Assembly: GCA_043748725.1 (NCBI GenBank)
Contig: JAYVER010000226.1
Location: forward strand, 8,922 to 72,921
From: Chloracidobacterium sp.
GTDB taxonomy: Bacteria; Acidobacteriota; Blastocatellia; Pyrinomonadales; Pyrinomonadaceae
Length of the DNA stretch: 64,000 nucleotides
Direction of reading: 5' to 3'
In this document: positions 2,755 to 54,599 of the stretch, one piece after another
Layout: each line of letters begins with the position of its first letter
How positions within the stretch are numbered: the stretch's first letter is position 1
Translations under genes and position numbers: made by a program
Notes under the pieces: model-generated
Databases searched by the model: none
What the model was told of the DNA's origin: nothing
Seen by the model: only the letters and a program-made list of their open reading frames with translations

Positions 2755-2837
2755 GGTTTCACCATCCTTTTGTTGACAGTATACGCCTAAACACTTAGTA
2801 TTTATAGTTTCGACTCTAATAGCCGAAGTGTGCCTGT

Positions 2838-4337
2838 ATGTTCGAATCGTTATCCGATAAACTCAAGAAAACGCTGAAAAATCTGCGTGGCCAGGGGAAA
2901 TTGACCGCTGAGCACGTTGATGTTGCTCTTCGCGAGATACGGATGGCGCTGCTTGAGGCGGATGTTAACTACAAAGTCGCTAAAGATTTTGTCGAATCGG
3001 TCCGAGTCAAGGCTGAGGGCGAAGAGGTCTGGAACGGGCTGAAACCGCACGAACAGGTCGTTAAGATCGTCTATGACGAACTTGCCGAGTTAATGGGCGG
3101 CACGTCGTCGCGGCTCGTTTTTACCAAGCAAACGCCGAACGTCGTGATGATCGTCGGTTTACAGGGTTCGGGTAAGACGACTTCGACGGGCAAGATCTCG
3201 CGTTGGCTCGCAGATAATCAGGAGCGGAAACCATTGTTGGTTTCGGTTGACGTTTATCGGCCGGCAGCGCGCGAACAGTTAAAGGTTGTCGCAAATGCCG
3301 TCAACATTGCGGTTTACGAGGCGAAAGAGTCAAACGACCCGATGACGATCGTCCGTGGTGCGGTCAAGCACGCGGTCGAATTTGGCTTTGACACGCTGAT
3401 GATCGACACGGCCGGGCGTCTCCATATCGACGACGATCTAATGGTCGAGCTCGAGCAGATCAAGGCCGAGACAAAGCCTGTCGAGGTTTTGTTTGTCGCC
3501 GACGCGATGACCGGGCAAGATGCGGTTCGCTCGGCTGAAGTTTTTCACGAGCGTGTCGGCATCACCGGCGTTGTCCTTACCAAAATGGACGGCGATGCAC
3601 GCGGCGGTGCGGCGTTGTCGATCAAGCAGGTCATTGGCCAGCCGGTCAAGTTTGTCGGCGTCGGCGAAAAATACGACGCCATCGAGCCTTTTTATCCCGA
3701 TCGTATCGCCCAGCGAATTCTCGGAATGGGCGATGTCCTGAGCCTGATCGAGGAAGTTCAAGGCAAAATCAGCGAGGACGAAGCCCAGGCGCAATTGCTG
3801 AAAATGACGCGTAACCAGTTTACGCTTGAGGATTTTCGTAATCAGCTTGGCCAGTTCAAAAAACTCGGCTCAATGTCCAAATTGATGAAGATGCTGCCCG
3901 AGCAGATGACCGGCGGCATGCAGATCACGGACGAGCAATCGGCCGTCGTGGACCATCAGATGAAACGCACCGAGGCGATCATCGATTCGATGACGCGGCT
4001 CGAACGCAACGAATATAAGGTTATCGACGCCAGCCGCAAAACGCGTATCGCCGGCGGTTCGGGCTCGACGATAGCTGAGGTCAATCAACTGCTTCGCCAA
4101 TACGAGCAGATGCGCAAAATGATGGCGCAGATGAATCGCGGCGGCATGTTTGGCGGCATGGCCAGGAAAATGGCCGGTGGATTGGCAGGCGGCCTCGGCA
4201 ATATGTTAGGCGGCGGCAACGGAATTGGCGGTCTCGGCGGAATGCTTGGCAGCGGCGCGGATATGGACGACGACGATTCAAACGGATCGGCGACACGAAA
4301 CATTAGGAAGAAGAAGCGACATAAGAAAAAGAGATGA
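2838..4337 (+). CDS. ffh: signal recognition particle protein Ffh
   Basis: NG domain motifs are present (GLQGSGKTTS, DTAGR, TKMDGDARGG), followed by an M domain. The C-terminal tail is unusually long, Gly/Met-rich and polybasic. Confidence 0.97.
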   Translation: MFESLSDKLKKTLKNLRGQGKLTAEHVDVALREIRMALLEADVNYKVAKDFVESVRVKAEGEEVWNGLKPHEQVVKIVYDELAELMGGTSSRLVFTKQTPNVVMIVGLQGSGKTTSTGKISRWLADNQERKPLLVSVDVYRPAAREQLKVVANAVNIAVYEAKESNDPMTIVRGAVKHAVEFGFDTLMIDTAGRLHIDDDLMVELEQIKAETKPVEVLFVADAMTGQDAVRSAEVFHERVGITGVVLTKMDGDARGGAALSIKQVIGQPVKFVGVGEKYDAIEPFYPDRIAQRILGMGDVLSLIEEVQGKISEDEAQAQLLKMTRNQFTLEDFRNQLGQFKKLGSMSKLMKMLPEQMTGGMQITDEQSAVVDHQMKRTEAIIDSMTRLERNEYKVIDASRKTRIAGGSGSTIAEVNQLLRQYEQMRKMMAQMNRGGMFGGMARKMAGGLAGGLGNMLGGGNGIGGLGGMLGSGADMDDDDSNGSATRNIRKKKRHKKKR

Positions 4338-21660: not shown

Positions 21661-23487
21661 CTAGATCAGATCGACCGGCTCGATCTTGATCTGGGCGCGT
21701 TTTAGCGTGACGTTTGATTCCCTACAGAACTCGCGAACGCTTTTGAGCTTATCGGGCGGCATATTGCGCACCGATACTAGAATTTCGGCAATATCTTTTT
21801 GACGGCAGATGTCGGCGAGCGAGCCGTTTCCGTCAAAAACCTTGAGGCCGTGAATAAGTTTATCCTTTTTCAACGGATCGTCGTCGATAAAACCGACCGC
21901 CGTGTAGTTCCACTCTGGATTATTGTTCAGTTCCCTTAAAACCATCTCGCCGCCGTCGCCGGCACCGTAAATAAGCACTTTTTGCCCGTCACCCGAAACC
22001 GGGAGAGGCAGTATTTGTCTGATCACGCGAAACGCCATGCGGCTCCCGACGACGGCTAACAGCAAAAGAATGCCGTCAAGAATGAACACCGTCCTTGAAA
22101 AGCCCTCGAACCGATATATGAGCAGAACCGCCATTACGCTCAGAATCGAGCCGAGCAGCACGCCTTTTGTAAACGTAATAAAGTCGCCGATACTCGTATA
22201 TCGCCACAAACCGCGATACACGCCGACGGCCAGAAACGAGCCGATCTTGATCAGTATCAGCAGCGGCAGGGTCTTGAGGAAAAGATCCCAGTTCGTCGAG
22301 CTCTCGAACGAAGCAAACAGCAAAGCAAACGCCGAGTAATACGCAAGCGTCACCAGAAAAGCGTCGAGAAATACCTCGAAGATGCGGCGTTTGTGTGACA
22401 CATTGACCAGAAACGCGAACACGGCATTTTCGGCAGCCGCCTGATCTTCATCCGTGCCTTCATAAACCTTGACTTTAGAAAGATAAACGCCAAGTATCAC
22501 CAGCAAAAGCGTAAAAAACCCTATGAGCGCGAAGCTCTTATAGACGCCGATCTGGCCGACAGAAAGTGCGAGAGCACCGGCGATAATGGCAAAGGCGTAG
22601 AGCATCAAGACGGCGTTTCGTTCCGAGAGGCCGAGCGCAACGAGCCGGTGCGATGTATGGTCGAGGCCGCCCTGTGACGCTTTTCTGCCCCAAAGTTTTC
22701 GTAGAACCGTCACAAATGTCGTGTCGAAAATGGGAACGAAAAGCACTAGGACGGGAACAGCCAGAATGGCCACAATGCCGCGCGAGCGCCCGCCGACCTG
22801 ATTTAGCAAGACCGAACCCGAAAGCAAAAATCCGACAAACATTGAGCCGCAGTCGCCCATAAAGATCGACGCCGGATTGAAATTAAAGACCAAAAATCCA
22901 AGCAACGCCCCGATCAATGCTGCGGATAAAAGCAGCTCGTTTGTCAGCCCGTTCGCGGCAAAATTGAGCGCCAGCGAAACGGACGCGATGGCTGAAATGC
23001 CGACCGCGAGACCGTCCATATTGTCGAGCAGGTTTATAGCGTTCGTAATGCCGATGACCCAAAACACGGTCAGCCAGATATCAATGATCTCGAAGCCGGT
23101 CAACGGCAGCTTGAGTCCTGAAAGCACAAGAATGCCGGCACCGATGAGCTGGCCGATCAGCTTTTGATAGGGCCGGATCGTTAAGATGTCGTCAAGTAGC
23201 CCGACCAAAAACAGGAATGCGCTGCCGCCAAACACGACCATTGAGCTGCGTGTCGGCGGCACAAGGAGAAAGTAGGCAACGGCCGTGGAAAGAAATATCG
23301 CGACACCGCCGAGCATCGCCGTCGGACGTTTATGCCAGCGGTCGGATTTCGGCTTGGCGACAAAACCGCGCCGCACAGCAAATGTCCTGACGGATAGCGT
23401 CAGGATTACCGACAAAATTGCGGCCACACTTCCGACAAAGATTGGGTTTGAGATCAAACCTTGCATAATTAAGAAAGAATGGAACAC
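21661..23487 (-). CDS. MraY/WecA-family polyprenyl-phosphate sugar-1-P transferase fused to an extra 4-TM and Rossmann-like (CapD/WbaP N-terminal type) module
   Basis: NAINLLDNMDGLA and FMGDCGSMFVGF motifs occur in the N-terminal half. VLIYGAGDGGEMVLREL...VGFIDDDP occurs near the C-terminus. The start could be GTG 23487 or ATG 23466. Confidence 0.8.
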   Translation of the reverse strand: MFHSFLIMQGLISNPIFVGSVAAILSVILTLSVRTFAVRRGFVAKPKSDRWHKRPTAMLGGVAIFLSTAVAYFLLVPPTRSSMVVFGGSAFLFLVGLLDDILTIRPYQKLIGQLIGAGILVLSGLKLPLTGFEIIDIWLTVFWVIGITNAINLLDNMDGLAVGISAIASVSLALNFAANGLTNELLLSAALIGALLGFLVFNFNPASIFMGDCGSMFVGFLLSGSVLLNQVGGRSRGIVAILAVPVLVLFVPIFDTTFVTVLRKLWGRKASQGGLDHTSHRLVALGLSERNAVLMLYAFAIIAGALALSVGQIGVYKSFALIGFFTLLLVILGVYLSKVKVYEGTDEDQAAAENAVFAFLVNVSHKRRIFEVFLDAFLVTLAYYSAFALLFASFESSTNWDLFLKTLPLLILIKIGSFLAVGVYRGLWRYTSIGDFITFTKGVLLGSILSVMAVLLIYRFEGFSRTVFILDGILLLLAVVGSRMAFRVIRQILPLPVSGDGQKVLIYGAGDGGEMVLRELNNNPEWNYTAVGFIDDDPLKKDKLIHGLKVFDGNGSLADICRQKDIAEILVSVRNMPPDKLKSVREFCRESNVTLKRAQIKIEPVDLI

Positions 23488-23583
23488 GGATGGCCACGGA
23501 TCGAAACGGATTTACACGGATATGATTTTTTATTTTAATCCTCTGACCCGTGTTTATCCGTGCTTTTTCAGTGCAGATCCGTG
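23483..23583. repeat. inverted pair of 10-bp-phased word arrays (CACGGAT x4 / ATCCGTG-type x4-5)
   Basis: CGGAT starts at 23487, 23497, 23507 and 23517. An AT-rich spacer follows, then CCGTG/CAGTG words near 23547, 23557, 23568 and 23578. Confidence 0.9.
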
Positions 23584-23642
23584 TTCTATTTATTGTTAAG
23601 CGTTATTACAAGCCAATTATCGCAGAAAATCAACCGTCAAAG

Positions 23643-24884
23643 CTATTGTACATTTTTACGGTCAAAGGCTTTTATGCGATCGGAATACTGCACGAGCAGC
23701 ATTTGATAGACCTCGGAAATATCGGCGACCATCTTTTCGGTGCGAAAATTTGGATCAACGTGCCGTCTGCCATTTTCGCCGAGTTTGCGTCTTAACTCGT
23801 CATCCTCAAGCAACTGCGCGACGCGCATTGCCAGTCCCTCGGAATCGAATGCCTTAACGAGATAACCCGTGTAGTCGTCGATCACCACCTCAGGCGCACC
23901 ATCGATGTCGAACGATACGCAAGGCTTGCCCATCGCCAGCGACTGTGGCAGAACGCGTGCCAAACCCTCCCGCAAGGACGTGTGGACAACAACGTCCATC
24001 GCCGAGATCATCTCCGGTATGCGCTCGCGGTCGATGAGTCCGGCAAAAACAAAATTGTCGAGAATGCCATATTTCCCGGCTCTTTCCTGCAAATGTTCGA
24101 GCAGTATGCCGTCGCCGATGAGAAAAAACCGGACGTTTGGAACGCGTTTTACGATCTCGGGCGCGGCGTCCATCAGTTGGTCGTGTCCCTTGAGCGGAAA
24201 AAGCCGGGCGATCTTGCCAACGACCGGCGCATCGAGCGGAATGCCGAATTCCCGTTTTACCTCATCGGCGTCGAATTTTGCATTAAGAAACCAGTCGAGC
24301 TCCATACCGCTGTAAACGGTGCGAAACCGCGCGGGCTCGGCAATTCCGGCGGCGATCGCCTTTTGCGAGATGATGTCCGAGACGCTGATGTAAAAATCCG
24401 TGACCGGCGCGCAGATCTTCTTGGCGAGCCACCATGCGCGATTTACGATCCACGGCTGGTAATCATGAAAAACGAGGCTGTGGAGCGTGTGGACGATGAT
24501 CGGCGCACCCGCGAGCCACGCCGCGAGGCGGCCGAGCACACCGGCCTTTGACGAATGCGTGTGGACAATATGGTAGCGTCCGGCCTTGATCAATCCGTAA
24601 AGTTTCCAGAACACCACGAGATCGGAGAACGGATTGATGCTGCGGCCCATTTCGGGCAGCACGATCAGATTTGTCGTCTCGCGGGCCTGAGAGAGCATCT
24701 CGCCCTCTTTGCCCTTGTCGATGCCGCTGACAAGCGTGACGTCGTACTCAGGCATCGCGTTGAGGCCAACGACCGAGAGCAGCGTATTCTCCTGCGCGCC
24801 GCCGACGATCATCCGCGTGATTATGTGGAGCACGCGGATCGTCCGACTTTGCGCCCTGTTTGTGGCGTCCTGCTGTATTGTCAT
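23643..24884 (-). CDS. glycosyltransferase family 4
   Basis: The C-terminal GT1/GT4 motif is present (EGLARVLPQSLAMGKPCVSFDIDGAPEVV). Confidence 0.85.
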   Translation of the reverse strand: MTIQQDATNRAQSRTIRVLHIITRMIVGGAQENTLLSVVGLNAMPEYDVTLVSGIDKGKEGEMLSQARETTNLIVLPEMGRSINPFSDLVVFWKLYGLIKAGRYHIVHTHSSKAGVLGRLAAWLAGAPIIVHTLHSLVFHDYQPWIVNRAWWLAKKICAPVTDFYISVSDIISQKAIAAGIAEPARFRTVYSGMELDWFLNAKFDADEVKREFGIPLDAPVVGKIARLFPLKGHDQLMDAAPEIVKRVPNVRFFLIGDGILLEHLQERAGKYGILDNFVFAGLIDRERIPEMISAMDVVVHTSLREGLARVLPQSLAMGKPCVSFDIDGAPEVVIDDYTGYLVKAFDSEGLAMRVAQLLEDDELRRKLGENGRRHVDPNFRTEKMVADISEVYQMLLVQYSDRIKAFDRKNVQ

Positions 24885-30183: not shown

Positions 30184-31539
30184 TCAGGCTCCGGCCCGAA
30201 GCCGATTATCGACTCTCCGTTGAGCCGCGGCCCGCAATAACTTCGTGTTTTCGCGCCGCTCCTGAAATATCGTCCAGCCTACGCCGACCAAAATAAATAA
30301 AAATACCTGTATCTGAGTTCGCTGGCGATATGCCGTGCCAACATTTCCGAGAAAGATCGAATAAGCGATCGTCAACATCAAGCTAAAGATCAATATCGGA
30401 AAAGCATTTCTTAGCCTTTTTTTGATGGCATAGATCAGGCCGGAAATTAGCAGCGGCATCATCGCCCACCATAAAAGCACCTCTGGAATAGTTATCGCCT
30501 GCCGCAAATTTGCCGCCTGCCACGGAAACGGTGCGAACATAAGATAGGAAAATCCGAGCGGCAGAGCTGAAATTGCGCCCTCAGTCGTCGAAACATCTAC
30601 ATCCTCACCGTATCCTGAATTTGCGGCCCTCGCCAGATCCGAGCGGCTGCTCTGAATGCGGTCTAGATTGCCAAAAACCTTTAACTCGACGCTCGCGTTT
30701 CGGCCAACTCCGAAATATATAGCCGAAAAACCGAGAAGGATGAGAACGAATGTTCGACGCAGAATCGACTTGTTTGTAGTGTTTACCCCGACTATAAAAC
30801 TGCCGACGATTGCCACCAAAACCATATATAAAATATAAAATCGGAGCGACATGATGCCGAAAAGCGCAACTACCAATAGGCCGATCGCCACGTAATTTAC
30901 CCTTTCCTGCAATTGCAAAACCATTGTCATGATCAGGACAAGCAAAAAGATGATCAATCCATCCTTAAGCAATTGACCGGACCAAATTACAAATGACGGA
31001 AAGATCGCGATGGCGATCGCCGAGAACTTAGCAACCTTGATATTGCTAAAGATCTTATTTGCACAGAAGTACACCATCGGTGCGGTCGCCGCCCCGATAA
31101 CCGCACAGAACGACTGCGCGGCAAAAATATTTCGACCCAAGAGCGTATAAATAAATCCCGTCAGGTAATACATGCCCCATCCGGCACCGCTGCGGGGATC
31201 GATCTGATATGTGAGGCCATCTCCCATCTGGGCATGGCCCAGCCAGGTATCCATCAAAACCGCGCCGTAAATGTCGTAGGCCCTGGCGTCGCCGCCGAAG
31301 AATTCACGCAGATCGAATACGTGAATAAATATCCCGAATGCCATTCTCGCGGCCAAAGCGACAAGAAAGACTGTGGTGATAAATTCTTTCTCTTCGGTAT
31401 ATCTGCGGAAAATAATGATCGCGATCGCCGATAATATGGCTACAACCAAAACCGCTATCGCCCCGTCGGGAAACGGGACGGCGATGGATCCCATGGCGAT
31501 CACAAGCACGCAGGCAAGCAGCAAGAACCTGTTTCCCAT
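30184..31539 (-). CDS. polytopic membrane protein (putative GT-C-type glycosyltransferase or polymerase)
   Basis: There are ten or more hydrophobic segments and an acidic first loop (GGDARAYD). The family was not securely recognised. Confidence 0.5.
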   Translation of the reverse strand: MGNRFLLLACVLVIAMGSIAVPFPDGAIAVLVVAILSAIAIIIFRRYTEEKEFITTVFLVALAARMAFGIFIHVFDLREFFGGDARAYDIYGAVLMDTWLGHAQMGDGLTYQIDPRSGAGWGMYYLTGFIYTLLGRNIFAAQSFCAVIGAATAPMVYFCANKIFSNIKVAKFSAIAIAIFPSFVIWSGQLLKDGLIIFLLVLIMTMVLQLQERVNYVAIGLLVVALFGIMSLRFYILYMVLVAIVGSFIVGVNTTNKSILRRTFVLILLGFSAIYFGVGRNASVELKVFGNLDRIQSSRSDLARAANSGYGEDVDVSTTEGAISALPLGFSYLMFAPFPWQAANLRQAITIPEVLLWWAMMPLLISGLIYAIKKRLRNAFPILIFSLMLTIAYSIFLGNVGTAYRQRTQIQVFLFILVGVGWTIFQERRENTKLLRAAAQRRVDNRLRAGA

Positions 31540-33254
31540 CAGGAATTGCCCTCCCGAAGCACGAGATTGTTTTCGAGCACGAGCGCGTCAAAATCTGCGT
31601 TTCCATACGTATTGATCGCATCCTGCGGCGTGCAGACGATCGGTTCCTGGACGTTGAAAGACGTGTTGAGCAGCATCGGAATGCCGGTGATCTTTTTGAA
31701 TTCGTTTATCAGATTCCAGTATCGCGGATTAACCTCACGCCCGACCATCTGCGGCCGGGCAGTGCCGTCAACGTGAACAACGGCGGGAATTTTCGACTTG
31801 TATTCCGCGGCAACTTTGATAACCGTGATCATAAACGGGTCGTGATGCTCGACGCCGAAAACCTCGCGGGCGTCTTCCTCAAGCATCGACGGTGCAAGCG
31901 GTCGAAACCATTCGCGTAGCTTAACTTTGTGGTTCAAGATCTCGCGCATATCGGCACGACGCGGATCGGCGAGAAAGCTGCGTGCTCCGAGGGCCCGAGG
32001 GCCCAGTTCCATTCGACCGTTGAACCAGCCGATGATCGCGCCGTCGGCGATCATTTTTGCGAGTCGGGGCAAAAGCACTTCATCGGAAAGCGTTTCGTAT
32101 TTCAGCCCCGCCGCATCCAGGGCGTCTTGGCATTCTTCATTTGAAAAACCAGGACCCCAAAAGGCGTGTTTCATCACAAATTTGCGGGGATGGCCGAGCG
32201 TCTGATGCCAAACATACATCGCCGCCCCGAGCGAGCAGCCCGCGTCACCGGCGGCCGGTTGGACATAGAAATTTTTGAACGGCGTTTCGTGAAATATTCG
32301 CCCGTTCATTACCGAGTTGAACGCGACGCCGCCGGCCATGCAGAGGTTTTCCTCGCCGGTCATTTCCTTTATCTTTTTGACCAGATAAATAGCCGTGTCT
32401 TCGAGCGCTTTCTGTGCCGAACACGCAATGTCCCAATGATGCTCGATCAATTCCTCGCCCTTTTTCCGGCTCGGCCCAAGCTCTCTAATGATCGCGTCGG
32501 GAAATTGATAATGTTTGGCTAGGTGATGATCGAGAACCTTGATATTGAACTTAAAATCGCCGCCGCCGTTGGTTGTCAGCACTTTTTCGCGAAAAAAATC
32601 GACGTATTTCGGCTTGCCGTATGCGGCCAGTCCCATCACCTTCCACTCGTCGCCGGTGAACATGTCAAAGCCGATATAGTTGGTCACCGCTGAGTAGAAT
32701 TGCCCTAAGCTGTGCGGCAGTTTGATACGTTTTAGAACCTCGATCTTGTTGCATTCGCCCCGGCAAAAGAGCGTCGTCGTATCTTCGCCCGTGCCGTCCC
32801 ATGTAAGGATCGCCGCTGAATCGAACGGAGATACAAAAAATGCCGACGCAGCGTGTGTTTGGTGATGCTCGAGATAATGAAATTTGAAATCACTCGCACC
32901 AAAATGCTCGCGAAGGCGTTTCGGATGCCTGAACATACCCAAATAGCTTTCGCTGACCTGCGCAAGTCCGCGGTCGGCACGCGCCTTGAACATATCCCTA
33001 GATATAAACGCCGCTCTCGCCGCCTGGACGGCTTTATGACGCAATATCCACGGCTTCCAGTAATGACCGACATGCTCAACGTCTTTTAGCGTGATACTGG
33101 CGTGATCGAGGCAAAACTGGATAGCTCGGTACGGGAAACCACTATGGTGCTTGACACGCGAAAAGCGCTCCTCTTCGACGGCCGCAATAAGCTCACCGTC
33201 CTTGATAAGCGCCGCCGCCGAATCACCTAATGTGGTCAAGCCAAGAATATACAT
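31539..33254 (-). CDS. carbamoyltransferase (NodU/CmcH family)
   Basis: MYILGL...DSAAALIKDGELIAAVEEERFSRVKH. Confidence 0.92.
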   Translation of the reverse strand: MYILGLTTLGDSAAALIKDGELIAAVEEERFSRVKHHSGFPYRAIQFCLDHASITLKDVEHVGHYWKPWILRHKAVQAARAAFISRDMFKARADRGLAQVSESYLGMFRHPKRLREHFGASDFKFHYLEHHQTHAASAFFVSPFDSAAILTWDGTGEDTTTLFCRGECNKIEVLKRIKLPHSLGQFYSAVTNYIGFDMFTGDEWKVMGLAAYGKPKYVDFFREKVLTTNGGGDFKFNIKVLDHHLAKHYQFPDAIIRELGPSRKKGEELIEHHWDIACSAQKALEDTAIYLVKKIKEMTGEENLCMAGGVAFNSVMNGRIFHETPFKNFYVQPAAGDAGCSLGAAMYVWHQTLGHPRKFVMKHAFWGPGFSNEECQDALDAAGLKYETLSDEVLLPRLAKMIADGAIIGWFNGRMELGPRALGARSFLADPRRADMREILNHKVKLREWFRPLAPSMLEEDAREVFGVEHHDPFMITVIKVAAEYKSKIPAVVHVDGTARPQMVGREVNPRYWNLINEFKKITGIPMLLNTSFNVQEPIVCTPQDAINTYGNADFDALVLENNLVLREGNS

Positions 33255-33261
33255 ATAAAAC

Positions 33262-33361
33262 TAACAACTGATTATCGCAGATTTACACGGATTATTTTTA
33301 TTAGGTCAGATCCGCAGCAATCGAGTTAGGTAAATTTATCCGCGCCAATCCGCGCCAATCC
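33262..33361. repeat. 10-bp-phased word arrays downstream of the GxxExxY gene (GATT x3, then ATCC x3)
   Basis: GATT starts at 33270, 33280 and 33290. ATCC starts at 33338, 33348 and 33358; the last units encode the C-terminal residues of the ORF. Confidence 0.9.
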
Positions 33362-33767
33362 GTTGTTCAAATTCTTCCGCTGGCTTTCCTAACCGGTTGA
33401 TTAAACGATGATGTTCGAAACTTTGTGCTCCGAAATTCAAAATCAGTGCGAGTTCCAGCCCGGTTGCTTTTAGATAGTTCAATGTCTGGGCTTTGTGAAC
33501 ATTTGTAATTCTTTCCGCAACCTTTAATTCGAGAATTAGCCGCTGCTCGACAAGAATATCTGCACAATAATCCCCGACAATTTCACCTTCGAATCTAACC
33601 TTGATAGGCACCTGCTGTTCGGCAAACATCCCCTCTCTCCGAAACAGAACCATCAACGAATTTTCATAAACCTTTTCCAAATACCCGTGACCAAGCGTTC
33701 GATGACCCTGCATTCCAAGTCCAATGACCTTATAAGTCAGGTCACCATATAGCAGTTCTTCGCTCAT
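33336..33767 (-). CDS. GxxExxY protein (PD-(D/E)XK-like orphan cassette family)
   Basis: GHGYLEKVYENSL (GxxExxY) ...DILVEQRLILELKV... matches the TIGR04256-type pattern as I recall it. Confidence 0.8.
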   Translation of the reverse strand: MSEELLYGDLTYKVIGLGMQGHRTLGHGYLEKVYENSLMVLFRREGMFAEQQVPIKVRFEGEIVGDYCADILVEQRLILELKVAERITNVHKAQTLNYLKATGLELALILNFGAQSFEHHRLINRLGKPAEEFEQRIGADWRG

Positions 33768-33775
33768 AAAATATT

Positions 33776-33840
33776 CAACAACGGATTAACGCAGATTGAC
33801 ACGGATTACTCTTTATTTTTGATTGAGAAATATCCGCCGT
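33776..33840. repeat. 10-bp-phased GATT word array upstream of the GxxExxY gene
   Basis: aacaacggattaacgcagattgacacggatta, with GATT starting at 33784, 33794 and 33804. The words match those at 33262-33293 and 53488-53520. Confidence 0.88.
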
Positions 33841-33850
33841 TTCAAACTCC

Positions 33851-34975
33851 CTATTTCACCAGACTTCGGCTGGCGAGTTCGGCGGTCGCGCTTTCGACGC
33901 GGTCTTCGGCGTTTTGGCCGCCCAGCCAGTCAAGAAGCTCAGCAAGTCCCGCTTCCAGCGAGACTTTCGACTCATAGCTGAGCAGTTTCCTTGCCTTAGA
34001 AATATCCGCGACACAATGGCGTATGTCGCCCTCGCGATAAAGGCCTACGATCTCCGGCTCAATGTCTTTGCCGAGACCGTTTGCCAGTAGTTGGGCGATC
34101 TGCTTAACCGATGTCGCTCTTCCCGTACCGATGTTCATCGCCTGATAATCGCCTCCGTCGGTACGAAGCGCGAGCAAATTCGCCTGCACGATATCGCTCA
34201 CGTGAACGAAATCGCGCGACTGCTCGCCGTCCTCAAAAATCGTCGGAGCCTGGTCATTCAGCAGACGCGACGAAAATATCGCACACACTCCGGTGTACGG
34301 ATTCGATAAAGCCTGACGCGTCCCGTAAACGTTAAAATAACGAAACGCGACCGTCGGGATCTTGTACGCACGGCCGACCGCGAGACAGTATTGTTCCTGA
34401 TCCTGCTTGGTCACGGCGTAAACCGAGGTTGGAAACAGCGGCTTTTCTTCCGGGGTGCCGATCGCAGCCAGCAGGCCGCCGCATTTTTCACATTTGAATT
34501 CCCAATCGTGCGCGGCAAGCTGTTCATTAGATCTGAGAAACGGATAAACGACTATGTCGCATGTTTGACAGCGGTAAGCTCCCTCGCCGTAGATCGACAT
34601 CGACGACGCAACAACCAGCTTGCGAAACTGCGCGGGCCGCTTGATCATTTCCTCAAGCAGGACCGCGGTACCGAGATCGTTTGCCTTTACATACCGGACG
34701 ATCTCGTACATCGATTGCCCGACGCCGACCTCGGCGGCCTGGTGATAAACAACGTCAATGCCATCGAGCGCACGAGAGACGACTTCGGCGTCGCAAACAT
34801 CGCCCCGAATAAATTCAGCTTGCTGGTTTAAATGCGCGGGAATGGTCGAGCCGTGAACCTGTTTGACCAGCGAATCAAGGATACGGACACGATGCCCTTT
34901 CGTCACCAAAGCATCAACTAAATGCGAGCCGATAAATCCGGCCCCGCCTGTTACTAAAATATTCAATTTTTCCAT
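33851..34975 (-). CDS. NAD-dependent epimerase/dehydratase (SDR) with an inserted Cys4 zinc-ribbon
   Basis: VTGGAGFIGSHL and YAVTK motifs. The insert is CQTC...x22...CEKC. Confidence 0.88.
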   Translation of the reverse strand: MEKLNILVTGGAGFIGSHLVDALVTKGHRVRILDSLVKQVHGSTIPAHLNQQAEFIRGDVCDAEVVSRALDGIDVVYHQAAEVGVGQSMYEIVRYVKANDLGTAVLLEEMIKRPAQFRKLVVASSMSIYGEGAYRCQTCDIVVYPFLRSNEQLAAHDWEFKCEKCGGLLAAIGTPEEKPLFPTSVYAVTKQDQEQYCLAVGRAYKIPTVAFRYFNVYGTRQALSNPYTGVCAIFSSRLLNDQAPTIFEDGEQSRDFVHVSDIVQANLLALRTDGGDYQAMNIGTGRATSVKQIAQLLANGLGKDIEPEIVGLYREGDIRHCVADISKARKLLSYESKVSLEAGLAELLDWLGGQNAEDRVESATAELASRSLVK

Positions 34976-45381: not shown

Positions 45382-47510
<2,129 letters not shown>

Positions 47511-47676
47511 TATTGCTCCTAAATTGTAAGACAAAATTAACTAATCTACGAATATGCTGCCGGTTTAAGGATATTTTTATTTTTTTGTCAGCATTCTATG
47601 CAACTCTTTAATAAAGGCGCTATACTAACAATAAAGTATGTTTACCATTAATTAAAGATTTATAACAAGGTTTAAT

Positions 47677-52335: not shown

Positions 52336-53478
52336 ATGAATATTGGCATCACTGTTTATCCGACATACGGCGGCAGCGGAATTGTTGGCTCCGAGCTGGG
52401 CCGGGACTTGGCTGAACGTGGCCACAACGTCCATTTTATCTCGTCATTTTTGCCGACGCGGCTTACGGAGTTGAACGAGCGGATACATTTTCACGAGGTG
52501 GAAATGATGTCGTATCCGCTGTTTGAGCATCAGCCGTATGATCTCGCTCTGGCGACAAAAATGGCGACCGTCGCCCGGGCCGAAAAGCTCGATCTTTTTC
52601 ACGTCCATTACGCGATCCCGCATTCGATCAGCGCGATCCTGGCGCGGGAATCTATCAAGCAAAAACGATATGTGCCGGTAATTACGACGCTTCACGGCAC
52701 CGATATCACGCTGGTCGGCGCCGACCGCTCGTATTTGCCGATCACTCGTTACGGTCTGCAGCAATCGGATGGCGTGACGGCCGTGTCGAAGTTTTTAAAG
52801 CAGGCGACGATCGAGACGTTTGATTTCGACGAGATCGAAGTGATTCCCAATTTTATTTGTCCGACTCACTATAAACGTCTTCCTGACTCGCCTTTGCGGG
52901 CCGAATTAGCTCCGAATGGAGAACGGCTTTTAACCCACGTTTCCAATTTCCGCCCGGTAAAACGCCCCGCCGATTGCGTTGAGATCCTCGCAAAGGTTAG
53001 GGCTGGCGGCGAAAACGCACGGCTGGTGATGGTCGGTGACGGGCCGGAATTATCCGCAGTCCGCTACCGTGCCGAACAGATCGGCGTGATCGACGATTGC
53101 ATTTTTGTCGGCAAACAGGCGAATATTGCCGACTATCTTGGCGTTGCCGATGTTTTTTTGCTGCCGTCCGAACTGGAATCGTTCGGCCTTGCCGCTTTAG
53201 AGGCACAAGCGTGCGAAGTGCCGGTCATAGCGACTCGTATAGGCGGCATCCCTGAAGTTGTTAATGAAGGCGAGAGCGGCTTTTTAAGCGACGTTGGCGA
53301 TATTGAAAAAATGAGTATTGATACACTGCGGTTGCTTGGCGACGAGCAACTGCGGCGTGCCTTTGGCGAACGAGGCCGTGAACTTGCCATCCAGCGATAT
53401 TCGACCGGACAGATCATCCCGCAATACATCGCTTTTTACGAAAAGGTAGTGCAAAAGGCCAAATCCGCAACCGCGTGA
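52336..53478 (+). CDS. bshA: N-acetyl-alpha-D-glucosaminyl L-malate synthase BshA (bacillithiol biosynthesis GT4)
   Basis: The start MNIGITVYPTYGGSGIVGSELGRDLAERGHNVHFI is characteristic of BshA. Confidence 0.88.
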   Translation: MNIGITVYPTYGGSGIVGSELGRDLAERGHNVHFISSFLPTRLTELNERIHFHEVEMMSYPLFEHQPYDLALATKMATVARAEKLDLFHVHYAIPHSISAILARESIKQKRYVPVITTLHGTDITLVGADRSYLPITRYGLQQSDGVTAVSKFLKQATIETFDFDEIEVIPNFICPTHYKRLPDSPLRAELAPNGERLLTHVSNFRPVKRPADCVEILAKVRAGGENARLVMVGDGPELSAVRYRAEQIGVIDDCIFVGKQANIADYLGVADVFLLPSELESFGLAALEAQACEVPVIATRIGGIPEVVNEGESGFLSDVGDIEKMSIDTLRLLGDEQLRRAFGERGRELAIQRYSTGQIIPQYIAFYEKVVQKAKSATA

Positions 53479-53487
53479 GAGGAGAGA

Positions 53488-53564
53488 AACAACGGATTAA
53501 CCCGGATTTACGCCGATTAAATTCCTATTTCTTAATCCGTGTAAATCCGCGTCAATCCGTTGTT
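53488..53564. repeat. 33-nt-arm imperfect palindrome made of 10-bp-phased GGATT / AATCC words
   Basis: aacaacggattaacccggatttacgccgattaa ... ttaatccgtgtaaatccgcgtcaatccgttgtt. Confidence 0.92.
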
Positions 53565-53579
53565 AACCTATATTGAATT

Positions 53580-54599
53580 ATGCTCAAACGCTACATGCAC
53601 AACCGTGAACGGCATTTTGCGATGCTTAACGACAACCGCGTAGTGCATCCGTTTGACTGGGGCACTGAATTTATCAGCGATCACGCGAATGGCGACGATC
53701 CGCGAAAGGTCTTTAGCGATTATTCGAAGTGGGCGGTTAAGCACAGCGATGAATTTTTCTTTTCGCCGGAGATTTCAGATTTTAAATTAGAACTTGACCG
53801 GTTAACCTGGACAAGCGCAATCGCCACACCCTCTGTCGAAAACAACACTGTTTACGCCAAATATTTCCCAAACGGAAAAAACTGCAAATCCGCCGTGCTG
53901 GTCCTGCCGCACTGGAACGCTAAGGCCGGAACGTATTTCGATCTCTGCAAAATATTCAACCGCATCGGTATTTCGGCATTGAGGCTGACGCTGCCATATC
54001 ACGAAGAACGCATGCCGCCGGAACTTGAGCGTGCCGACTATATGGTGGCCCCAAATGTCGGTCTCACTCTGCAATCGCTGCGCCAGGCAACTGTTGACAC
54101 ACGCTCAGCCGTCCGATGGCTCAAACAGCAGGGTTATGAAAAGATCGGGATCGTCGGCACGAGCATCGGTTCGTGTATCGGATTTTTCGCCTTTGTCCAC
54201 GATATGCAGATCAACGCAGCGGTTTTCAACCATGTTTCCGGCTACCCGGCCGACATCGTTTGGCACGGCCTCTCGACCTATCACGTAAAACAGGGCATCG
54301 GCGACAATCTCAACCTCGATGAGCTTCGCGAATACTGGCTGCCGATCTCGCCTATGTCGTATATCGAGCGGCTCTCAAATCTCCCGCCGCGTCCGCAGCG
54401 TTATATTTATACACTCTATGACCTCAGCTTCCCACTCAATTTATCGCTTGACACAATGGCAGCGCTAAAAAAGCACAAGATAAAACACAGCCGATCCGCC
54501 ATCCCTTGCGGCCACTACACCCTCGGCGAAATACCCTGGGTCTATCTCGATGGCTATAAGATCGTGTCGTTTTTGCGGAAACATCTTCGCGCTCGTTAG
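53580..54599 (+). CDS. alpha/beta-hydrolase fold protein
   Basis: GTSIGS nucleophile elbow. Confidence 0.7.
   Translation: MLKRYMHNRERHFAMLNDNRVVHPFDWGTEFISDHANGDDPRKVFSDYSKWAVKHSDEFFFSPEISDFKLELDRLTWTSAIATPSVENNTVYAKYFPNGKNCKSAVLVLPHWNAKAGTYFDLCKIFNRIGISALRLTLPYHEERMPPELERADYMVAPNVGLTLQSLRQATVDTRSAVRWLKQQGYEKIGIVGTSIGSCIGFFAFVHDMQINAAVFNHVSGYPADIVWHGLSTYHVKQGIGDNLNLDELREYWLPISPMSYIERLSNLPPRPQRYIYTLYDLSFPLNLSLDTMAALKKHKIKHSRSAIPCGHYTLGEIPWVYLDGYKIVSFLRKHLRAR

Follow-up and report, generated by a model that had tools for sequence, protein, structure and literature searches.

A GxxExxY gene and its phased palindromic arms in an exopolysaccharide operon of Chloracidobacterium

The GxxExxY gene and the palindromes around it

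The window analysed here comprises 64,000 nucleotides (nt) of a metagenomic scaffold from Chloracidobacterium sp. (contig JAYVER010000226.1, positions 8,922 to 72,921), and contains a small gene of the GxxExxY family (33336..33767, minus strand) that is bordered on both sides by palindromic repeats of a kind found also at other gene junctions. The gene lies in a PEP-CTERM/XrtA-type polysaccharide locus, between an NAD-dependent epimerase/dehydratase gene upstream (33851..34975, minus strand; PF01370, E 2e-52) and a NodU-type carbamoyltransferase gene downstream (31539..33254, minus strand; PF02543 and PF16861). The interval between these two host genes is referred to below as the exopolysaccharide (EPS) junction. 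All three genes are co-directional, and their same-strand neighbours include glycosyltransferases, methyltransferases and an XrtA-type asparagine-synthase-like amidotransferase. A protein identical to that of the window is encoded, in the same context, by 21 contigs.

The protein (143 amino acids, aa) gives full-length matches to TIGR04256 (E 4e-36, 123.9 bits against a cutoff of 35, model positions 1-116 of 116) and to PF13366, PDDEXK_3 (E 7e-34, 117.1 bits, cutoff 22), and no Pfam or NCBIfam model other than these two matches it. Residues G28-x-x-E31-x-x-Y34, D70, E80 and K82 are invariant in the alignment of homologues, the last three forming the catalytic D...ExK signature. The AlphaFold2 model (predicted local distance difference test, pLDDT, 86) has an alpha/beta PD-(D/E)XK core, and residues 1-126 form the core of the protein. 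The nearest solved folds found with Foldseek are Cas4 SSO0001, the lambda exonuclease family and MGME1, all of them modest matches (E ~6e-4, TM ~0.5), and no sequence relative is present in the PDB at E <= 0.01. The family is large, with 24,578 cluster representatives (50% identity) matching at E <= 1e-3. Among the best 150 of these, 33 contain two matched stretches, and the seven double-match representatives that were inspected (250-277 aa) are all two-domain proteins, the second domain often being divergent at the catalytic positions. Such natural fusions suggest that the single-domain protein may work as a dimer. One survey includes the family, with 'Unknown' as its function and a remark on multiple transfers (PMC3424549). 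No relatives were found in a scan of viral contigs, and a viral origin was rejected on that ground.

The word arrays on either side of the gene are arms that belong to palindromes and follow the consensus AAAC-AACGGAT-TAA-CRCRGAT-TWA-CRCRGATT. Of the palindromes, one is complete and overlaps the 3' end of the gene, a half-decayed one lies upstream, and two gene-less palindromes occur elsewhere in the window. Arms were scored with a weight matrix of 31 nt built from the arm family, which gives 40-50 bits at the main arms of the window and never more than 11.2 in shuffles. The downstream palindrome (33263-33367) consists of a distal arm (33263-33293, AACAACTGATTATCGCAGATTTACACGGATT, 43.5 bits), a 43-nt loop (33294-33336) that holds an extra degenerate word (ATCCGCAGCAATC, 33310-33322), and a gene-proximal arm in inverted orientation (33337-33367, 39.7 bits), which reads AACAACGGATTGGCGCGGATTGGCGCGGATA on the gene strand; the array ATCCGCGCCAATCCGCGCCAATCCGTTGTT ends at 33367. 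On the gene strand, the distal arm ends 8 nt before the start codon of the carbamoyltransferase, and the outer terminus of the gene-proximal arm abuts the ancestral stop position of the GxxExxY gene. The upstream palindrome has a well-preserved gene-proximal arm (33777-33807, AACAACGGATTAACGCAGATTGACACGGATT, 49.3 bits), with 9 nt between its terminus and the start codon of GxxExxY. This arm forms a direct repeat with 33263-33299 (86% identity) and an inverted repeat with 33338-33370. The loop and the decayed outer arm that follow (33808-33846, ..GATTGAGAAATATCCGCCGTTTCAAAC) were recognised by inspection, the matrix giving less than 9 bits. That outer arm (~33820-33846) adjoins the epimerase stop codon (33851-33853) and is intact in the orthologous loci L091, L051 and L110.

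The first of the gene-less palindromes (53488-53564; arms 53488-53518 and 53534-53564 around a 15-nt loop, 42.7 and 49.8 bits) lies between a family 4 glycosyltransferase gene (52336..53478, plus strand) and a gene for a protein of 339 aa (53580..54599, plus strand). The other is a variant with four CACGGAT-type words per arm (~23480-23600, 25 bits), situated between two genes of the polysaccharide locus (21661..23487 and 23643..24884, both minus strand). An 11-mer alone is weak against chance (5 matches, 1.8 expected). A chance origin of the arrays was nevertheless ruled out by the shuffles, in which the matrix reaches 11 bits at most (40-50 at the arms) and phased arrays are absent (0 against 117 in the diverse loci described below). 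Neither an intrinsic terminator nor a sigma-70 promoter was found in 33100-34000.

The last 10 codons of the gene (EQRIGADWRG) are encoded by the downstream arm. At the arm boundary, a frameshifted homologue at the same junction (L110) reads gaagaatttTAA with a TAA codon, where the window reads gaagaatttGAA with GAA. In other homologues translation ends ahead of the arm or inside it, or passes through the arm in a different frame (LNNGLTQIYAD). The arm-encoded tail (residues ~134-143) has a pLDDT below 50 and is predicted to be disordered. A functional tail was rejected, since its frame and length vary among homologues and its pLDDT is low; it is best described as stop-loss read-through. A sequence-only reading of the window had described a 143-aa PD-(D/E)XK-like open reading frame (ORF), co-directional within an EPS operon, with 10-bp-phased arrays on both flanks, terminal residues (RIGADWRG) encoded by an array, and a cassette-less palindrome of the same vocabulary at 53488-53564. 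All of these points stand: the strings quoted are present, their GATT words start exactly 10 nt apart, and the distant palindrome is the same element as the flanking arrays.

Distribution of the palindrome and its association with GxxExxY genes

The pattern AACAACKGATT-N6-GATT-N6-GAT was scanned exactly, using one genome per species. At least 115 stretches matched, most of them in Pyrinomonadaceae, Chloracidobacterium and other metagenome-assembled genomes (MAGs) of Acidobacteriota; the remainder, among the matches listed, are chance-like and have no partner arm. A census of the 79 family-positive loci (8-kb stretches around the matches) and the window, 636 kb in all, gave 99 elements, 78 of which are complete palindromes. 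Loops are mostly 9-17 nt long (up to 164 nt), and in gene-less copies they vary in both sequence and length. The consensus arm of the census is AACAAC-GGATT-AAC-R-C-R-GATT-TAC-R-C-R-GATT.

The context of these elements is strikingly uniform. They occupy junctions between the stop and start codons of co-directional genes in 66 of the ~75 cases where both sides could be assigned, which leaves only 5 convergent and 4 divergent settings. The distance from the element to the start codon is 8-12 nt, and the upstream stop codon lies 0-9 nt before it or within its first word. Several orthologous junctions carry the element in more than one species: NagZ and ornithine/arginine decarboxylase (6 loci), RseP and IspG (5), a family 2 glycosyltransferase (GT2) and AsnB (4), an anti-sigma-type kinase and NAD synthase (3), and the junction at 53488 in the window, which is also occupied in L017 and L118. 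As most of the Blastocatellia copies are gene-less and stand at housekeeping junctions such as these, the palindrome is a general intercistronic repeat. The arrays are not specific to the GxxExxY gene, and arrays private to the window gene are ruled out. Among the 149 flanking proteins, which were clustered and annotated through representatives, GxxExxY is, on the other hand, the only nuclease-like gene that recurrently adjoins the Blastocatellia elements. The target-site duplication expected of a classical transposon was not found in the 77 Blastocatellia palindromes inspected (direct repeats of 2-8 nt are not above chance), and an element of that type was ruled out.

Other small genes that stand between arms (DUF952, ACP, ABC, WecG, T2SS-C and Iron_traffic) are ordinary host genes between consecutive palindromes. 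The sole exception is a gene with a HEPN domain (2779-3189) in L155 (2209-3557), which has a GxxExxY gene next to it and further palindromes behind it, an arrangement that resembles a small array of palindrome-separated cassettes.

Conservation within the arms resides in the words. Over all 31 positions, 1743 of 2232 cells show Watson-Crick matches between the two arms, but at the variable positions (12, 15, 17, 22, 23, 25 and 27) the arms of one palindrome agree at about chance frequency. Positions 15, 17, 25 and 27 are almost always purines, and mismatches on the sense strand are of the G.U type about as often as of the A.C type (124 and 108), with no bias towards G.U. In orthologous palindromes the words are kept while spacers and loops drift, even though the genes next to them have reached saturation at synonymous sites. 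The arms conserve the sequence of their words rather than the pairing between them; word conservation without pairing covariation favours in-phase recognition on one face of duplex DNA, and speaks against selection for a hairpin.

The association of gene and arms extends well beyond the Blastocatellia. A profile scan of metagenome contigs yielded 80 diverse GxxExxY loci (43-78% identity), and arms are present at 66 of 143 GxxExxY flanks (46%) compared with 9 of 193 flanks (4.7%) for the remaining ORFs of these loci at distances above 330 nt (odds ratio 17.5, p = 3e-20). Over 79 diverse loci, three C[AG]C[AG][AG]A words at a phase of 9-11 nt occur 117 times, and they never do so in shuffles, and 81 of the 117 lie within 160 nt of the ends of a GxxExxY gene. 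An inverted-repeat test, in which 110 nt upstream of the gene were aligned to the reverse complement of 110 nt downstream, gave a median score of 26 for GxxExxY, against 15 for mismatched loci and 14.5 for neighbouring genes. Scores of at least 30 were reached in 38% of the GxxExxY loci and in 4.7% of the neighbours (p = 5e-11), and 15 of 73 loci exceeded the 99th percentile of the control. The flanks that align consist of three ~10-nt-phased words (e.g. TTAGCCACGAATGGACACGAATAGCACGAATG ... CATTCGTGCTATTCGTGCCCATTCGTGGCTAAA), with CACAGAT, CGCAGAT, CACGGAT, CACAGAC and CACGAAA among the variants. They follow a pan-lineage consensus of TTARC, CRCRRAY nnA, CRCRRAY nnA and CRCRRAY, of which the Blastocatellia arm (AAAC, AACGGAT TAA, CRCRGAT TWA, CRCRGAT) is a variant. 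Protein identity is higher between members of the same word class (0.60) than between classes (0.51; permutation p <= 0.0005), a correlation that is confounded by host phylogeny.

Individual cases illustrate the spread. In the Blastocatellia, GxxExxY genes with arms occur in four contexts, namely the EPS junction, a divergent class-I EPS copy (the classes are described below), NurA|179aa|gxx|DUF8166 and TPR|gxx, the last two having the arm-gene-arm topology. In L131 (ABC|gxx|ABC2, lineage unknown) only the downstream side shows an arm-like stretch, and this is degenerate. CACAGAG words stand on both sides of the gene in Bacteroides finegoldii (radA|gxx|FAD protein), Gemmatirosa kalamazoonensis has a CGCGGAT palindrome downstream of it, and the same pattern of gene and arm is seen in Treponema saccharophilum and an isolate of the Fusobacteria. 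In Sphingomonas parapaucimobilis (NZ_CP155749.1, 482837-483265; L215) a co-directional GxxExxY gene lies between fabD and fabG, with CGCGAAG-type words upstream. Overall, the gene is co-directional with its upstream neighbour in 48 of 55 cases, and with its downstream neighbour in 37 of 49. Gene and phased-word arms form a specific, phylum-spanning unit, so that the question whether other members of the family have array flanks is answered positively for the sampled loci from several phyla.

Two arrangements can be distinguished. In class I, the majority (~33 loci), the order is outer terminus, arm, gene, arm and outer terminus, with the last word often supplying the ATG and the other arm beginning 3-30 nt past the stop codon. 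In class II, a complete palindrome stands behind the gene, and its TTARC or TAAC terminus contains or abuts the stop codon; the members are the window clade, where another palindrome precedes the gene, and L136, L146, L150, L151, L153, L154, L166, L180, L184 and L206. Pairs of left and right arms (L...R) spaced 200-700 nt apart nearly always enclose GxxExxY, and the reverse intervals (R...L) hold ordinary host genes. Nested sets also occur: L190 (929-1567) has three left and three right arms at 50-nt spacing on both sides of one GxxExxY gene, and L189 (2415-3040) has two and two, the outer pair with CACAGAT and the inner pair with CACGGAT words. The arms of L199 are perfect over 40 nt.

History of the EPS junction

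The order epimerase, palindrome, GxxExxY, palindrome, carbamoyltransferase is shared by L033, L051, L087, L091, L110 and L134, and L084 has the same arrangement with a different upstream gene. Identity to the window is 77-88% for GxxExxY, 72-85% for the epimerase and 85-90% for the carbamoyltransferase. Synonymous divergence (dS) of the GxxExxY gene is saturated, non-synonymous divergence (dN) is 0.09-0.32, and dN/dS is at most 0.03-0.13 where it could be computed. A divergence like that of the neighbours, together with a low dN/dS, points to vertical inheritance within the clade and maintenance by selection. The copy in the window is thus old, vertically inherited in a Pyrinomonadaceae-like clade, and under purifying selection.

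Other relatives show the junction in different states. It is cleanly empty in L223 (TAG-aagt-ATG), and in L219 (CP065000.1) it is reduced to a 21-nt spacer that retains a 9-nt arm terminus, TCCGTTGTT. The gene is frameshifted in L110 and in L222, where it is followed by three tandem palindromes of 128 nt (2113-2489; arm, 53-nt loop, arm), and a 41-aa remnant lies between two palindromes in L047/L220. In L130, the GxxExxY copy is only 65% identical to that of the window (epimerase 78%, carbamoyltransferase 83.5%) and is nested between a single pair of arms. A polymorphic junction with a decaying insert is what would be expected of a cassette that arrived by insertion. Comparison of the orthologous locus in relatives, as the sequence-only reading had proposed, thus reveals presence and absence (empty, footprint, intact, frameshifted, remnant and another cassette). 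That reading had also regarded the gene as a selfish or mobile cassette, which agrees with the presence, absence and decay seen at this junction but not with recent mobility of the window copy, which is syntenic.

Some further observations concern the same region. The tandem copies in L222 show that palindromes can amplify in tandem. In L221 (1972-2482), a DUF4160 and DUF2442 gene pair without arms takes the place of GxxExxY upstream of the carbamoyltransferase, and the junction is in this respect a hotspot for small accessory genes. The window epimerase (33851-34975, minus strand) matches the Epimerase and GDP_Man_Dehyd models in two stretches (~6-145 and ~177-351), a split that suggests an insertion of ~30 residues in its middle region. 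Elsewhere in the window there is a thiamine pyrophosphate (TPP) riboswitch (47407-47512, minus strand; RF00059, 70.4 bits, gathering score 54.3).

A candidate two-part element and its alternatives

The interpretation that we favour, at about even confidence, is that the window carries an old resident copy of a widespread two-part element, comparable to the pairing of REP-associated tyrosine transposases (RAYT) and REPINs, or of insertion sequences (IS) and miniature inverted-repeat transposable elements (MITE). One part would be the gene for a PD-(D/E)XK GxxExxY nuclease of ~125 aa. The second would be the inverted arms, each made of a TTARC terminus (here AAAC) and three heptamer words with starts 10 bp apart. 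Gene-less palindromes of the arm-loop-arm type, such as 53488-53564, would be the non-autonomous form. The protein, probably as a dimer, would bind one face of the double helix at the three in-phase words and cut at or near the palindrome, after which host repair or recombination could copy the gene with its arms, or the arms alone, into other junctions or into the centres of resident palindromes. Because of its long vertical inheritance, the window copy would be domesticated or move only rarely. The inner arms of class II may have arisen by gene conversion from gene-less copies, or by recombination between palindromes.

Several points weigh against this interpretation. Contact between protein and arms is itself putative, and the relation of protein identity to word class has host phylogeny as a confounder. 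About one third of GxxExxY loci have no detectable arm. In the window clade the gene stands outside the palindromes and is not nested in one, which requires an extra step. No near-identical GxxExxY copies were found in the lineage, the divergent copies (in different assemblies, within the 8-kb loci) being 65-70% identical to the window protein. An unrelated, arm-less pair of small genes can occupy the same junction (L221), target-site duplications are missing, and palindromes at the same junctions in different species look more like stable cis-elements than active transposons.

Among known systems, RAYT/REPIN (PMC5581495, PMC8266576) is similar in having a single nuclease-type gene between inverted short repeats, many gene-less extragenic palindromes, no target-site duplication, and long vertical inheritance with the enzyme under purifying selection. 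The differences are that the enzyme is here a PF13366 protein of the PD-(D/E)XK type, whereas RAYT is an HUH/Y1 transposase, and no other recurrent enzyme adjoins the elements. The arms are three 10-nt-phased heptamers without covariation, ending in AAAC/TTARC, whereas repetitive extragenic palindromic (REP) sequences are hairpins with a conserved GTAG. The elements also sit precisely between stop and start codons, and several diverged GxxExxY paralogues are possible per lineage: inheritance at the EPS junction is vertical, and several diverged copies occur in other contexts of the lineage (in 8-kb loci of different assemblies). IS and MITE pairs likewise have terminal inverted repeats around one gene, short gene-less versions made of the two ends, and nesting. 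They differ from the present elements, in which neither a target-site duplication nor a DDE or any other known transposase occurs, whose positions are conserved across species, and of which near-identical copies were not seen in the window lineage. Integron cassettes (an ORF with its attC site) also combine a small, promoterless, co-directional ORF with an imperfect palindrome behind it, and a gene between two palindromes is the expected product of recombination between palindromes. However, attC conserves structure and RYYYAAC/GTTRRRY cores, whereas here words are conserved and the termini are TTARC/AAAC, a mismatch of core and conservation pattern by which attC was ruled out. The present elements are, moreover, scattered at housekeeping junctions and not arranged in an integrase-linked array, although no integrase search was made.

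A different explanation is that the palindromes are cis-elements of the host at operon junctions, similar to REP sequences and bacterial interspersed mosaic elements (BIME). They would bind a host factor, or modulate translation, mRNA stability or DNA topology, and small selfish genes would merely accumulate at these permissive or recombinogenic sites, the arms not being recognised by GxxExxY. The REP and BIME sequences of E. coli are multi-copy imperfect palindromes that follow stop codons inside operons. The present element resembles them as a multi-copy imperfect palindrome in transcribed intercistronic positions (the 66 of ~75 stop-to-start cases, with multiple copies in many Blastocatellia MAGs), and is unlike them in having no sequence relation, three words at 10 nt, and a link to a PD-(D/E)XK gene. 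In favour of a host function are the gene-less state of most Blastocatellia copies and their stop-to-start placement, with the start 8-12 nt behind and orthologous positions in several species. The retention of the words despite saturated dS suggests constraint at the level of the host. Further support comes from the missing target-site duplication, from the DUF4160 and DUF2442 pair accepted by the EPS junction, and from the HEPN gene between arms in L155. Against it, that pair is inserted without arms, and the association of arms with GxxExxY is specific (46% of its flanks, against 4.7% for other ORFs of these loci) and spans phyla with different word variants. In addition, L...R pairs 200-700 nt apart enclose almost solely GxxExxY, arm termini or words are fused precisely to its start or stop codon, and protein identity tracks word class. 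We consider a host cis-element unlikely, though it deserves to be kept in view.

The gene alone could also be mobile, by homing: the nuclease would cut an uninterrupted palindrome in or near its loop, and the gene would be copied in from a filled copy, so that gene-less palindromes would be targets rather than derivatives. Homing endonuclease genes may be free-standing or intron-borne, and I-Ssp6803I is a homing enzyme of the PD-(D/E)XK type. As in their life cycles, a small nuclease gene lies here between conserved genes, with presence, absence and pseudogene decay at the EPS junction. The dominant arm-gene-arm layout, in which arms abut the ATG and the stop codon, would also fit, as would a small gene for a possible dimer (from the two-domain fusions) with a symmetric target, and the missing target-site duplication. 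Nonetheless, the clean empty allele of L223 has no palindrome at all, the nested arm sets of L189 and L190 suggest that arms travel with the gene, and class-II copies, including that of the window, are not in a loop. The loops of gene-less copies vary in sequence and length, and arms also exist alone in many copies. No relation to I-Ssp6803I was detected by sequence in the PDB search, nor close kinship of fold, as it is absent among the top 50 Foldseek matches. Homing of the gene alone is therefore judged improbable. The sequence-only reading had proposed that the arrays are a homing target, a footprint or cis-acting ends; the family-wide linkage and the presence, absence and decay at the EPS junction are in keeping with arms that are cis-acting ends or a target.

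Lastly, the arms might act at the level of RNA. They would pair in the polycistronic mRNA, either locally or over the length of the gene, and would signal processing (much as RNase III cuts rRNA intervening sequences) or stability, or bridge a Shine-Dalgarno (SD) sequence and the start codon; GxxExxY could be an RNA-directed nuclease or a passenger. The full palindromes of the window do fold strongly as RNA (z -4 to -7). The downstream one (33263-33367, computed on 33255-33375, minus strand) reaches -36.9 kcal/mol (z -4.1), the gene-less one (53480-53572) -37.6 kcal/mol (z -7.5) and the variant (~23480-23600) -38.5 kcal/mol (z -5.3); the half-decayed upstream palindrome has no significant fold (z -0.1). 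They are always placed in transcribed, intercistronic positions of co-directional genes. Of 60 Blastocatellia junctions, none has an SD-like motif in the 14 nt between element and start codon, and 20 have one within 20 nt on the 5' side of the element (e.g. TGAGAGGAGAGA at 53470-53487 of the window, before AACAAC), so that the palindrome lies between an SD-like sequence and the AUG in a third of them. However, SD use is low in this organism in any case (3 of 19 genes), variation in one arm is not compensated in the other, and the sense strand has A.C mismatches as often as G.U ones. Conserved words with purine-only degeneracy and a 10-nt phase are a typical pattern where a protein reads duplex DNA. 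A terminator-like tail is missing, and the palindromes match no Rfam family at the gathering threshold (only noise at E <= 10), which leaves a known RNA family without support. An RNA hairpin under selection was ruled out by the missing covariation and G.U/A.C asymmetry, and an RNA-level element in general has only a slim chance of being correct.

The sequence-only reading had connected the family with the intervening sequences of 23S rRNA. ORFs of the latter belong to the four-helix-bundle family PF05635/TIGR02436, which we take to be unrelated to GxxExxY. They are small, multi-copy and bounded by inverted repeats inside conserved transcription units, and the present gene resembles them as a small ORF of unknown function in such a setting. 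The fold is unrelated, however: the window protein matches PF13366 and neither PF05635 nor TIGR02436, and its model is alpha/beta and not a four-helix bundle, so that the connection falls away. No four-helix-bundle genes of this type were found between arms in the loci examined.

No description of an association between GxxExxY and palindromes was found in the literature searched. We propose, tentatively and with rather less than even confidence, that PF13366 proteins serve as nucleases dedicated to a class of palindromic mobile elements that has so far escaped recognition, across bacterial phyla. Each protein would read, in both of the inverted arms, three heptamers one helical turn apart, and would spread itself and gene-less palindromes into the stop-to-start junctions of operons. 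For a large family of unknown function, the phased-word arms provide a first testable DNA substrate. If the protein acts on the arms, this would be a second, mechanistically independent partnership of nuclease and short palindromes of the RAYT/REPIN type, an explanation for a class of intercistronic repeats in phyla that have received little study, and possibly a compact, sequence-programmed module for binding or cutting DNA. In genome annotation, arms can serve to mark inserted GxxExxY cassettes as distinct from true operon genes. If true, the proposal would explain the origin of a large class of palindromes between cistrons, in Acidobacteriota and Bacteroidota as well as in other phyla, and the presence of orphan GxxExxY genes inside polysaccharide, fatty-acid and other housekeeping operons.

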